Source of the DNA: Escherichia coli O157:H7 | Lineage (GTDB): Bacteria; Pseudomonadota; Gammaproteobacteria; Enterobacterales; Enterobacteriaceae | Length of the DNA: 64,000 bases | NCBI RefSeq assembly: GCF_013167455.1 | Contig: NZ_CP038328.1 | Strand: one strand, 5' to 3' | Shown here: positions 53,301 to 61,499 of the stretch, piece by piece | Layout: the number at the start of each line of letters is the position of its first letter | Numbering within the stretch: position 1 is the first letter of the stretch | Position numbers: made by a program

Positions 53301-56300
53301 CCCTTGGGCGGTCAAAAGATGAGTTTCAGGCTCTGGCCCGGGCAGAAGATCTCCAGGTTGCTGGCGGGACAGCAATCGTCTACGCAGGTACGCTGGCGGA
53401 TGCATCGGTCAGTGGCGCGACAGGAAGCCTGTCGTTAATGACGCCACGGGATAATGTTACGCCAGTTAAACTCGAAGGGGCGATCCGGATTACCGATAGC
53501 GCGACATTAACTATCGGCAATGGCGTTGATACGACGCTTGCCGACCTGACGGCTGCCAGCCGGGGCAGTGTCTGGCTTAACAGCAATAATTCCTGTGCAG
53601 GCACCAGCAACTGCGAGTATAGAGTAAACAGTTTGCTACTTAACGACGGTAATGTTTATTTATCAGCACAAACAGCAGCGCCTGCCACAACTAACGGTAT
53701 ATACAATACGCTGACAACCAATGAACTTTCCGGTAGCGGTAATTTCTACCTGCATACCAACGTTGCAGGCTCTCGGGGCGATCAACTGGTCGTCAACAAC
53801 AACGCCACTGGTAATTTTAAAATCTTTGTTCAGGATACCGGCGTCAGTCCTCAGTCTGACGACGCGATGACGCTGGTGAAAACAGGGGGAGGGGATGCTT
53901 CGTTTTCGCTGGGCAATACTGGCGGTTTCGTTGATCTTGGGACCTATGAGTATGTCCTGAAAAGCGATGGCAACAGCAACTGGAACCTGACCAATGATGT
54001 CAAACCCAACCCGGATCCCAACCCAAATCCCAACCCAAATCCGAAGCCGGATCCAAAACCAGACCCAAAACCGGATCCGAAACCAGACCCGACTCCCGAG
54101 CCAACGCCGACACCCGTTCCGGAGAAACGCATCACGCCTTCTACCGCAGCCGTACTCAATATGGCAGCAACATTACCGTTGGTATTTGATGCTGAGCTAA
54201 ACAGTATTCGCGAGCGGTTGAACATAATGAAAGCGAGTCCACACAACAATAATGTCTGGGGGGCGACGTATAACACCCGTAATAATGTCACGGCGAGTAT
54301 ACCTTTTATTCGCCAGTTTAATCTGTTCATCAACAAGAACAGCCATTTGAAAAAGATCAGAGTTTCAGACGTGATGAAAATCGCTGATTCTGACTAAGAC
54401 CAACCTCCATTAGCTCTGGCGTTCCCAGCTTCGGTCTTTTTCCTGCTGATTCATTTGTATAGTCATTTCCATCAAAACGGCACAGAGGAAACGACTATGA
54501 ATCAGCACAACACCCGCCTTATTCGTTTACCAGAGGTTCTGCATCGAACTGGATACGGTAAAGCTTGGATCTATCACCTCATCAACCAAAATCGTTTTCC
54601 TTCCCCCGTTAAAATCGGTGCGCGCTCTGTTGCTTTCATTGAAAGTGAAGTAGACGAATGGATTCAATTAACTATCGAAAATTCAAGAAAGCATGTTGCC
54701 TGAAATAAAATGACAGTCTTCTTATTTATGAGGATTAATTCTCAGATTTGTAAAGTTTAAATCTTAAAAAAATCTATATTTAACGTAATTCTTTACGTTT
54801 TTTCTGGCAGAGCTTTTGCTATAAGGCTTAGAGATGGTTTTCTTAATATCGGGTATGGATACAGCCCACTAGCCGTACCTGTTTATTTGACGTCAAATAA
54901 AATTTTTCAAGCCATTAATATATATACCAATTAAACAAGATTCATTGTAAAAAATTTGAATTATTTTGAATTGGAATATATTTAATAAGTGAGAGTGATA
55001 TTAATTTGTTAAGTTTGAGGTGAAAATGGGATATAAAGTAAAGAAATTCATCATGAGTAGTGGAGAGCGAGGATGCCTGATCCTTGATAAAAAAAGTAAT
55101 CTACCAACTTACTATCAAAATCTATTTCTTACTACAGACATAAGAAATAGAGGCGCAACGGCCTCAACGATGGAAATAGTTGCAACTAACTTACTAATTT
55201 TCAGTAATTTCTTGGATGGTAGGGGAATTGATATAATTGAGAGAGTTGAACTTAAAAAATATCTCAGCGTTGCAGAAATAGATGATCTGGTAAGATATGC
55301 GAAACAAAGATTCGACAGACAAAAAATCATAAATATAAAATCGACAAATTATAGGTTTATTGCGAAGAGAACCTTTAGTTATAGAATACACGTTTTTTCA
55401 CGCTACCTTAAGTGGTTATGTGGATTAGTTCATTCGTCAAAGGGGATTCATGCAAAGTATGAAGTAGACGTATTTATTGAAAGTATCAGAGCACATATTC
55501 CAAGAAACAGTTCATTGAATATGAATGAAATATCTGAAAAATCGTTGAATGAAGAAGAGATCAAAGTGCTTTTCCGTCTATTGGAAATTGGCGGGATTGA
55601 AAACCCTTTCCATAAGGAAGTACAGGTCAGGAACAGACTAATATTTACCTTGCTCTTAAATTTAGGTTTAAGGGCTGGAGAGTTGCTCAATCTTAAAATA
55701 GATGATTTTGATCTCAGAGACAACACTTTAAGTGTAGTCAGAAGACATGATTCAAAAGAAGATGGAAGATCTTATCAACCATTAGTAAAGACTGGAGAAA
55801 GGGTTATTCCGTTATCTGATGAGTTAGCCCGTGAAATTTTTGATTACATAAGCAATAGCAGAGAAAAAATGACAAAAAGGAAAAAGCATAATTTCTTATT
55901 TGTGGCTCATTGCACCGGAAAAAACGCAGGAGAACCCTTAAGCATTTCAGCTTATGAGAAGGTGATATCAACACTGAAACGAGCAAGTCCAGAGCTATAT
56001 AATCTTTCAGGCCATAGGTTAAGGCACTCTTGGAATTATATGTATTCTAAAGGAATAGAAGGTGCTGAATTAGAATATAATAGAAGGAAAGATTTAAGGA
56101 ATTATTTAATGGGTTGGTCAAAGGAGTCAATAATGTGTGATAGATACAACTATAAATATATATCGCAACAAGAGAAGGATGTCGTCCTAAAGGTCTATAA
56201 ATCAGTAAGTAAAATAATTAGTGGAGTTTAGTATGGAAAACAAATGTATTGAAAGTGAGCAAATCTTTTTTGCTAAGATGAACAGGTATAGTTTCAAACT

Positions 56301-59300: not shown

Positions 59301-61499
59301 CCATCAAGACAATCCTTAAGTAGTCATGTAAGGATTGCGGAAAGCTTCAATGTGAAAAAAACCACAATCAAATCTGGTGTAATACACACTGTAAAACCTG
59401 CTAATTTAAAAGTGGCTTCTCAACGAATTAAAAGACTTGAAGCAGAAAATGAAGCTTTGAAGGCATTAAATGAACGCTATTTAGAGCAGTTCAAAGTATG
59501 GCTTTATAATGCTCACCTTAAACAAATAACGATTGAAGAACTTAATAATCCGTTACCTGCAAAATACCTTTAATAAAATTGATAGGTTTTAGCTATTGAC
59601 ATGGTGAAATATTATGTTATTTATTTTCTTGTCAGGACGACAAAATTTCACTATTGCAAGGATGCATATTATGGACAAAACAAATATTAACTTAATGGAA
59701 AGGTATCTTCTTCTGCTTGATCGATTCGTTGATAAACTCGCTGAATCAGGTTTCTCAGAGCAACGAATTATCGAACAATCATATCTTTTTTGTGCAGGAT
59801 TTTATATCAAATACCAGAGTGGTATAGAAAAAATGACCTTCTCCAACAGGGAGGTTGTTTTAACCTTTCTGCTACTTTCATATTATAGTCATATAAATAA
59901 ACTGGATGATGATTTGATCAACAAAGAGCGTATGAAGCATGTATGTTCTTCATTGATTAACTTTATAGTCAGTAATGGTAGCCGAACAGAGAAAGTCTAT
60001 GCTAATGAGAAAAGGAAATATGAGGCTTCAACTCTAAAAAGAGAATTATCGAAAAAGGATAAAAGGAAAAGATATAGGTTGTAGTGTTTGTATGATTTTC
60101 ATTAGACTTACTTAATCTATAGTCTAAATTTTAATATTAGATTCGTAAATCTATAATTCCATGAATCTAATTAATGCTTAAAAGCATCCTCTAAGATGCT
60201 TTTACTGTTACCATGCATACATACCCAGAACCTTTAACAAACGATAATAGAGGGGAGTTGTGTATAACAACTCCCTGACCTTACTAAGGTTAGCGATGTT
60301 ATTCAGCATCATTCTGTCAAAGATTTAATTTCTTTGAAAAATACTAATTCTACCCCTTAAGTTAATAACTTCTGCTTGATCGTGTATTTTGGTAAGTTGG
60401 AGTACAATTTTTTGATTGGATCGTCAATAAGAAAAAGCTAGAATCCTTAGAAGGACATAGATTTTCATAGGGTTAAGATATGACGATTGCGAAGGATAGT
60501 TCGACTGATGAAATCATTCATGGAAATGATCTCCGTGGAATGGATGATTTTTACATTAAGACAACGAGTTTTGAATGCCCATACGAGCCTTGTAAAATTA
60601 AAGCCACACCTTGTAGTTTTACTATGAAACATGTTAATCAATCATATTTCAGATATGGCGATAAACATAAGGATGGATGTGGTATTCATGATCCAAGATA
60701 TAAAAACAATCATACTTCAAATGACGAAAGAAAACATAATTCGCCACCTGCTCCGGTTATATCACTTTTAAAAATTGATGTGAAACCAAGAGGTGGTGTT
60801 AAAAATGCCAGAAATATTAAAAATGAAAATCACAAGGATGAAAAAAAAGGTAATGAACATCCTGTATCTTCATCAAGTATTAAGCCAGTCGTTGACTATT
60901 ACATAAATAATAGCAATCATAATGAACAGCTATCAATCCCTCCATATGGCACGCGATCTTATAAAGATACATTTCAACTTATTTTTTACAAAAACAACAT
61001 ACGTTATTACAAACCTGCTATTTATTATGGTGTAGCCCAGTCTAATATTCGTCTGCATGAAGATTCAGATAAACATTGTATTACTTTCCTCGCAAGGGAT
61101 AAGAAAACCCAAAAACCATTTACGCTTGAAATTGATGTTTCTGACTGGAATAAAAGTCAGAAGGATGTGTTTTGGAAGGAATATGAAAAGCAAAGGAAGG
61201 AAGCTGATAGGTATTATAAGGGGCTTAAAGATAAAAGGAATGCTAAAAAATACTTGACGGTTTTCTTTTTTGGGATGCCGGATGAAAATGATAAGTTTCT
61301 ATTTAAGACAAACCACTTTAAATTAGTATATGTGGCTTTCTTGGGTAAATTTGAAAGCTCATATAATGATAGTAATTATTACATTGAAAATGATCTGTCT
61401 GTATCATCATTGAATGAACAACCCATTTCATTATCTGATATAGACCATAAAAATCATGAATATAATATTGAAACTTCATTAGATTTTAGTTCTCCTTTG

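Follow-up and report, generated by a model that had tools for sequence, protein, structure and literature searches.

A GInt-type ginABCD recombinase operon, probably stranded in a decayed mobilizable island, between ypjA and ssrA of Escherichia coli O157:H7

GInts, as defined by Bardaji 2017 (Sci Rep 7:46254; PMC5385486), carry a ginABCD operon encoding three integrase-like proteins and a small helix-loop-helix protein, and the GInts of Pseudomonas need all four gin genes for circular excision and site-specific integration, using short imperfect repeats and 6-nt staggered cuts. Characteristically, gin occupies the 5′ end of its island, directly inside attL, the island is flanked by imperfect direct repeats of 10–17 nt that arise from gin-dependent site-specific integration, and the 3′ end is short and AT-rich; the published examples use the 3′ end of a gene as their insertion site and leave that gene unchanged, and distantly related GInts may have a common target. 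Similarity networks separate the GInt families from those of the SEs; GInts occur in 7.5% of Escherichia replicons, SEs are rare in this genus (0.3%), and the ginC products have been described as being without the RHRY motif (Idola 2023, PMC10214605). Both GInts and SEs need three recombinase-fold proteins. Here we analyze a 64,000-nt stretch of the chromosome of Escherichia coli O157:H7 (NZ_CP038328.1 in GCF_013167455.1; hereafter the window), in which four coupled genes lie in the region between ypjA, encoding the EhaD autotransporter, and ssrA. In our judgment these genes are probably a GInt-type ginABCD operon, present as a stranded remnant in a decayed mobilizable island.

With RefSeq starts, the operon consists of ginA (55026–56231), encoding a tyrosine recombinase of 401 aa (403 aa if read from the GTG at 55020), ginB (56233–57546, its open reading frame (ORF) also being open from 56221), encoding a tyrosine recombinase of 437 aa, ginC (57543–59174), encoding a large tyrosine-recombinase-fold protein of 543 aa, and ginD (59175–59573), encoding a small accessory protein of 132 aa with a helical N-terminal domain and a long C-terminal helix. 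A 1-nt gap separates ginA from ginB (stop at 56231, ATG at 56233), ginB and ginC overlap by ATGA at 57543–57546, and ginC and ginD join with a 0-nt gap (59174/59175). The order of an AlpA-like gene and four coupled ORFs on the + strand, with these same junctions, had been reported by a first-pass annotation of the sequence and was confirmed, as was the low GC content of about 33% in the gene block: GC is 0.29–0.36 over 54500–61500, compared with 0.43–0.54 in the autotransporter gene to the left. The segment 54400–61900 is 100% identical to many O157:H7 chromosomes and is carried by 392 of 5426 complete E. coli genomes (7.2%), in all of which it is chromosomal, and this frequency agrees with the published GInt rate. 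Promoter and terminator scans gave signals no higher than expected from shuffled sequence.

Three recombinase or recombinase-like genes followed by a small gene, all tightly packed on the + strand, make up the arrangement that characterizes GInts, and both the gene order and the C-terminal coiled coil of the small protein agree with the published descriptions of GinD. Two of the products can moreover be found by accession: WP_001059531.1 (543 aa) and WP_001052051.1 (132 aa), the RefSeq accessions in an O157 genome that shows 100% DNA identity with the window over this gene set, are both included in the published list of ginC–ginD synteny blocks, with NC_011353.1 as the example record (Idola 2023, PMC10214605, Additional file 10). 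For the remaining comparison, the fragments of P. stutzeri DSM 4166 GinA, GinB and GinC printed in Figure S1 of Bardaji 2017 served as the reference, and each fragment best matched the protein at the same position here: GinA aligned to residues 181–420 of P. stutzeri GinA with 32% identity (99 bits), GinB to its counterpart with 25% identity (51 bits), and two P. stutzeri GinC fragments aligned collinearly to the 543-aa GinC with 30 and 28.5 bits. The sequence comparison thus covered GinA to GinC, and the assignment of GinD rests on the published ginC–ginD listing. The first-pass proposal of a multi-recombinase module of the integrative kind is therefore supported, whereas its description of the element as uncharacterised is not, since the module is of GInt type and its GinC and GinD were already listed. 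The gene cluster is real and its description was correct, but the family to which it belongs has been published, and the copy in the window is a remnant and not a new element.

At the level of the individual proteins, with residue equivalences based on motif context, the catalytic residues R, K, HxxR, W and Y of GinA align with those of P. stutzeri GinA, and in profile searches GinA matched the XerA/XerC/XerD models and PHROG integrase families, its sequence match in the Protein Data Bank (PDB) being the XerC-like 4a8e. GinB contains R, K, RxxR, H and Y, with Arg replacing the first His of HxxR; it scored 320.6 bits against NF041502 ‘site-specific integrase’, below the cutoff of 350, and matched a PHROG integrase with E 8e-13. 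PDB sequence searches with GinB and GinC returned no match. In GinC, residues R228, K260, H395, R398, W418 and Y430 are invariant in an alignment of 25 homologues. A GinC profile searched against 1.84 billion representatives (50% clustering, E ≤ 0.001) retrieved a family of 1636 representatives, and among the 137 best-scoring, mutually diverse members each of the six positions is kept in 130–137 of 137, a C-terminal Cys/His patch (C483/H485/C492) being likewise conserved. GinC has the core-binding and catalytic fold and the R-K-H-R-H/W-Y residues of the tyrosine recombinase superfamily. Because its R-K-H-R-W-Y set is kept both in the 25 homologues and in the 137 representatives, the earlier claim of three recombinases with catalytic signatures holds, subject to the Arg substitution in GinB and to the use of motif context for the residue equivalences. 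Pseudomonas GinC of GInts is reported to lack the first Arg, whereas the enterobacterial GinC retains it, and this box I arginine is also present in the GinC family members nearest to the P. stutzeri GinC fragments. As judged from these alignments, GinC of this large branch keeps the full catalytic set, which goes beyond the published descriptions and represents a modest advance.

GinC and GinD had no match in Pfam, NCBIfam or PHROG profile searches. The predicted structure of GinD (model pLDDT 86) consists of short N-terminal helices followed by a long helix at residues 78–115, in line with the coiled coil noted for the fourth ORF at first pass, and a Foldseek search of this model against the PDB gave no significant fold match. 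GinD homologues are confined to Enterobacterales and adjoin ginC. All four gin genes have dN/dS of 0.15–0.39 relative to the copies in other islands and are under purifying selection. As for size variation, most GinC family members are 650–750 aa in length, the 543-aa O157 type being a short form, and in the representative P0167 (1194 aa) the profile match is confined to residues 520–1134.

An ordinary and a large recombinase accompanied by a small coiled-coil protein give the locus a general resemblance to TnpA/TnpB/TnpC of Tn554 and to IntA/IntB/Srap of SEs, and weak matches of 21–22 bits were found to GmtY of the gamma-mobile-trio. That the module is a transposon like Tn554, the SEs or the recombinase-in-trio (RIT) elements, rather than a GInt, is nevertheless scarcely credible. 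An SE (intA-tfp-intB-srap) shares with the locus four conserved genes, two catalytic recombinases, a recombinase-fold protein and a small coiled-coil accessory, and 6-nt spacer chemistry has been proposed for both SEs and GInts; the difference lies in gene order and sizes, with Tfp second and the large catalytic IntB third. SE membership was rejected because the second gene here encodes 437 aa with R, K, R, H and Y, unlike a Tfp of at least 550 aa lacking RHRY. Published networks split GinC/GinD from Tfp/Srap, and among the supplementary files searched the two proteins are listed solely in the GInt file, so that the gin proteins are set apart from Tfp/Srap by these networks and this listing rather than by direct alignment. 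Tn554, which belongs to Staphylococcus and thus to a Firmicutes host, likewise combines an ordinary and a large tyrosine recombinase with a small protein of ~125–130 aa encoded after them; it was rejected by architecture, namely three genes with two recombinases against four genes with three recombinase-fold proteins here, and similarity to Tn554 was not detected in the profile and plasmid searches run, which included no direct comparison with TnpA/TnpB/TnpC. A tblastn search with GinC matched 92 plasmid records, and their ten leading genera included neither Staphylococcus nor Enterococcus. RIT elements, with three recombinase genes only and long terminal inverted repeats, were rejected because the locus has a fourth coupled gene and its operon is not enclosed by a pair of inverted repeats, and the gamma-mobile-trio (GmtY/Z/X) because the NF040693 scores of 22.3 and 20.9 bits are far under the cutoff of 340. 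The four genes and the absence of long terminal inverted repeats also bear out the first-pass remark that neither Tn554 nor RIT fits cleanly.

In intact relatives, the operon was found within a recurrent block consisting of DUF6387, AlpA, ginABCD, orf137, orf221 on the opposite strand, a MOB relaxase gene accompanied by a small accessory gene, and variable cargo that frequently holds defence genes (SIR2, ABC-three-component, Hxs, PIN, patatin). The block occurs in E. coli at ssrA (locus L007), at proL beside yejO (L006), at leuX (L002/L008) and at thrW (L014), and also in Klebsiella, Salmonella, Pectobacterium and Serratia. In every E. coli island the tRNA or tmRNA gene is adjoined by a P4-like integrase of the PRK09692 type, and the island relaxase matches MobA/MOBP-type models. 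At both ends of the proL island the last 19 bp of tRNA-Pro are repeated perfectly, and the integrase adjoins one of these copies. Strains lacking the insertion provide an empty ypjA–ssrA site, and comparison with it places the ssrA island exactly at the ssrA 3′ end with nothing replaced, the island ends showing a 3-bp overlap with the empty site and an imperfect ssrA-like repeat. The classical integrase can account for the ends of both the ssrA and the proL islands. In E. coli, Salmonella and Klebsiella, the same island left end stands beside different flanks. We also considered the whole island as a GInt with gin-made ends, and this is disfavoured by the pairing of each of the four tRNA/tmRNA sites with an adjacent P4-like integrase and by the 19-bp tRNA repeats of the proL island. 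No version of the leuX island without gin was found when one was sought. These comparisons establish that the enterobacterial gin operons are embedded in integrase- and relaxase-bearing tRNA/tmRNA islands and do not lie at the island end, which is beyond the published descriptions. A further island of the same type lies just downstream of fljB–fljA in Salmonella enterica (L018, GCA_025675845.1, 2035–2806), where the left flank includes a stretch similar to the integrase-proximal end of the E. coli ssrA island, with the canonical island left end directly after it; it looks like a tandem or attP-like junction.

In the window, the gene upstream of the operon is alpA (54497–54703, + strand), an AlpA-family helix-turn-helix gene of 68 aa from the RefSeq start at 54497 with an ORF open from 54455. 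Its product matches PHROG ‘excisionase and transcriptional regulator’ families (E 7e-10), and its orthologues carry PF05930 Phage_AlpA. A DUF6387–AlpA pair was found at the integrase-distal end, together with a relaxase and without gin, in the E. coli island L009 and in ICEKp258.2, a member of the EARL (Enterobacteriaceae-associated ROD21-like) islands. The core of EARL islands has been described as including a recombination directionality factor, and in the ICEKp258.2 gene table an AlpA-family regulator stands beside a DUF6387 gene. Since the DUF6387–AlpA end module thus occurs also in gin-less islands, and in view of the EARL description, AlpA is probably an excisionase or regulator of the host island and not, as first proposed, a special partner of the recombinase trio.

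The copy in O157:H7 is incomplete. Similarity to intact islands breaks at 60042, inside the end of orf137, and 3′ of the break the DNA consists of a Pro-Glu-repeat ORF, a BamE-like gene, an insertion sequence (IS) IS30 fragment and prophage debris as far as ssrA; neither a relaxase nor an integrase is encoded between 60042 and ssrA. The O157 copy is therefore without the island relaxase, cargo and integrase, and the right end of the island is lost. On the left side, most O157 genomes have ypjA, intact or interrupted by IS1203, then the island end and a full DUF6387 gene, and other O157 genomes possess the remainder of ypjA and, between ypjA and AlpA, a DUF6387 gene. Compared with the O157 locus L001, of which 1–16655 corresponds to 37637–54291 of the window and 19892–27283 to 54291–61682, the strain studied here lacks 3236 bp (L001 16656–19891) comprising IS1203, the end of ypjA encoding the beta-barrel and most of the DUF6387 gene, so that at the junction (54291) a DUF6387 3′ remnant (54291–54397, + strand) is fused to the truncated ypjA/EhaD ORF. 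The left breakpoint lies 2–3 bp from an IS1203 inverted repeat, which suggests an IS-associated deletion. Excision-associated deletions of IS629/IS1203 promoted by the IS-excision enhancer are known in O157 and would fit the deletion seen. The first-pass observation that the autotransporter gene is truncated at the element is thus correct for this strain, but the truncation is not an insertion scar, because the breakpoint adjoins IS1203, the junction is common to only 4 of the 5426 E. coli genomes, and ypjA continues in other O157 genomes; it is a late, strain-specific deletion separate from the recombinase module. From the loss of relaxase, cargo and island integrase, and in this strain of the left island end as well, we infer that the O157 gin operon is most likely stranded and can no longer move the island.

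The same ypjA–ssrA site in O121:H19 FWSEC0006 (L005, 1794–7937) is occupied by the other gin cassette type, in which ginB is split, ginC is interrupted by IS600 and Cys replaces the Arg-II of GinB. The orf137/Pro-Glu-repeat segment known from O157 comes after it, and the O121:H19 copy is thus decaying independently.

Comparison of the islands with each other presents the operon as an exchangeable unit. Backbones that are 80–84% identical in DUF6387–AlpA and in orf137–relaxase hold gin operons without detectable nucleotide similarity, and two cassette types, the O157 type with a 543-aa GinC and the L007 type with a 628-aa GinC, occupy the same slot. The cassette edges are sharp, at the alpA stop codon on one side and ~20–40 bp past ginD on the other; the left edge lies at ~54704–54747, within the region 5′ of ginA (54704–55025, + strand), as similarity to L007-type islands ends at the alpA stop and similarity to L002 starts at TTTGTAAAG, ~54746. 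The O157-type operon is 96–99% identical among the ssrA, proL and leuX islands, with a synonymous divergence (dS) of 0.03–0.12, and its flanks are far more diverged (alpA dS 1.0–1.6, orf137 dS 0.2–0.8). By this pattern of identities the gin operon behaves as a swap unit, a property beyond those described in publications.

These same data bear on a second explanation, in which gin with short flanks (~54704/54747 to ~59600, 4.9 kb) would be a minimal, cargo-less GInt nested in the host island, with a specific insertion point directly behind the alpA stop; in O157, where the segment is intact, it might have retained its mobility. Unrelated gin cassettes with sharp edges in one slot of similar backbones, and nearly identical gin between much more diverged alpA and orf137 flanks, speak for it, and published GInts do insert at gene 3′ ends with a shareable target. 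Against it, alpA joined directly to orf137, as an empty cassette site would be, was seen in none of the 5426 E. coli genomes, gin precedes orf137 in all relatives examined, and homologous exchange via the conserved flanks could give the same pattern. Convincing terminal direct or inverted repeats, which the first-pass annotation had proposed looking for, are also missing: the search around the operon found just chance-level AT-rich matches. On balance we regard nesting as unlikely, and it is similarly doubtful that in Enterobacterales gin, instead of serving the island for integration, is a self-contained, recombinase-only cassette of ~4.9 kb with three catalytically competent recombinases, possibly active in O157:H7, which moves between tRNA-integrating defence islands by landing directly after alpA. 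If true, the cassette would be a mobile element that has other such elements as its hosts.

An 18-bp perfect palindrome, TTATTTGACGTCAAATAA, is located at 54883–54900, ~125 bp upstream of ginA, and is conserved in the O157-type cassettes of L006, L002 and L011; it may serve as an operator or as a core site for the recombinases. At the corresponding place the L007-type cassette, which is unrelated, carries another palindrome, CACCTTATATAAGGTG. A palindrome upstream of ginA could also be taken to favor a third explanation, that the module is a DNA invertase or rearrangement system acting as an inversion switch within the island instead of by excision and integration, and so could the orientation of the body from DUF6387 to the cargo relative to the tRNA-proximal integrase, which is opposite in the leuX and thrW islands compared with those at ssrA and proL. 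However, the two orientations track different integrase lineages and tRNA sites, for which modular shuffling is a sufficient explanation, no inverted repeat pair flanks any segment, and the characterised relatives excise and integrate; an inversion switch is therefore very improbable.

The gene 3′ of ginD, orf137 (59671–60084, + strand), is preceded by a conserved promoter-like leader (59596–59670) and follows ginD in every relative examined (L002, L006, where it lies at 9145–9558, L007, L011 and L013–L018). It is 88–96% identical across Escherichia, Salmonella, Klebsiella, Enterobacter, Serratia, Cronobacter and Photorhabdus, compared with only 36–74% for GinC of those islands, and searches assigned it to no family or domain. 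Its role may be that of a fifth partner in function, or it may be a backbone gene under strong selection.

Returning to the GInt-type operon in a decayed island, we propose that GinA, GinB and GinC would act as three tyrosine recombinases with GinD as a small helical accessory protein, and we infer from the Pseudomonas experiments that their reaction would be circular excision and site-specific integration. In Enterobacterales, gin is a module within a larger mobilizable island whose own P4-like integrase inserts it at a tRNA or tmRNA gene. On one side, gin is flanked by DUF6387 and by AlpA, which is probably the excisionase, and on the other by orf137, orf221, the MOB relaxase and defence cargo. 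The O157:H7 copy has kept intact gin genes and lost the island machinery, which most likely leaves a stranded operon. Several points weigh against this. DUF6387 and AlpA (~1.7 kb) separate ginA from the end in all intact relatives, so that the GInt hallmark position is not seen, the classical integrase and the tRNA-derived repeats already account for the island site, and the repeat search around the operon found no attL/attR-like repeats for gin. In addition, the gin ORFs are fully intact in ~300 O157 genomes and may leave room for activity on some other substrate, and direct comparison with the reference Gin proteins is limited to fragments.

The ~300 O157:H7 genomes label the genes as ‘DNA-binding protein’ or ‘hypothetical protein’, of which GinC and GinD are now nameable. 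The enterobacterial branch would also allow the contribution of the trio to be asked directly, as it offers tractable hosts (E. coli, Klebsiella, Salmonella), a GinC with every catalytic residue and a classical integrase alongside. The host islands carry anti-phage defence genes and a relaxase and thus bear on the spread of defence genes.

Further to the right in the window, the Pro-Glu-repeat ORF (60480–61778) encodes 432 aa without a family match and contains a perfect (GCCAGA) × 30.7 array at 61499–61682, which encodes the Pro-Glu repeat. When this region is matched to other O157 genomes, the lengths vary in steps of 6, and therefore the GCCAGA copy number varies between strains, as a variable-number tandem repeat (VNTR). 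At 61854–62249 and 62192–62947 (− strand), a gene for a BamE-domain lipoprotein (131 aa), the second besides the core bamE near ssrA, has a truncated IS30 transposase gene as its neighbour, and a (TATTTC) × 11.8 array is present at 63024–63094.

Compared with known systems, the gin-bearing islands resemble the EARL islands (ROD21-like, e.g. ICEKp258.2) in being tRNA-integrated with an integrase at one end and AlpA and DUF6387 at the other, and in having a MOB-family relaxase and defence or restriction cargo. The published gene table of ICEKp258.2 is without a gin operon, and the EARL core is described with a TraD protein not noted in the gin islands; the comparison made here is one of gene content. 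GInts, for their part, are described as non-mobilizable, whereas gin islands here are linked to a MOB relaxase; unlike GInts, they own a P4-like integrase and have tRNA/tmRNA-type ends, and the O157 copy is truncated, unlike the characterised GInts. What the locus has in common with GInts is low-GC, horizontally acquired DNA with variable cargo and the same four-gene order, in which two recombinases are followed by a large recombinase-fold protein and a small helical protein.

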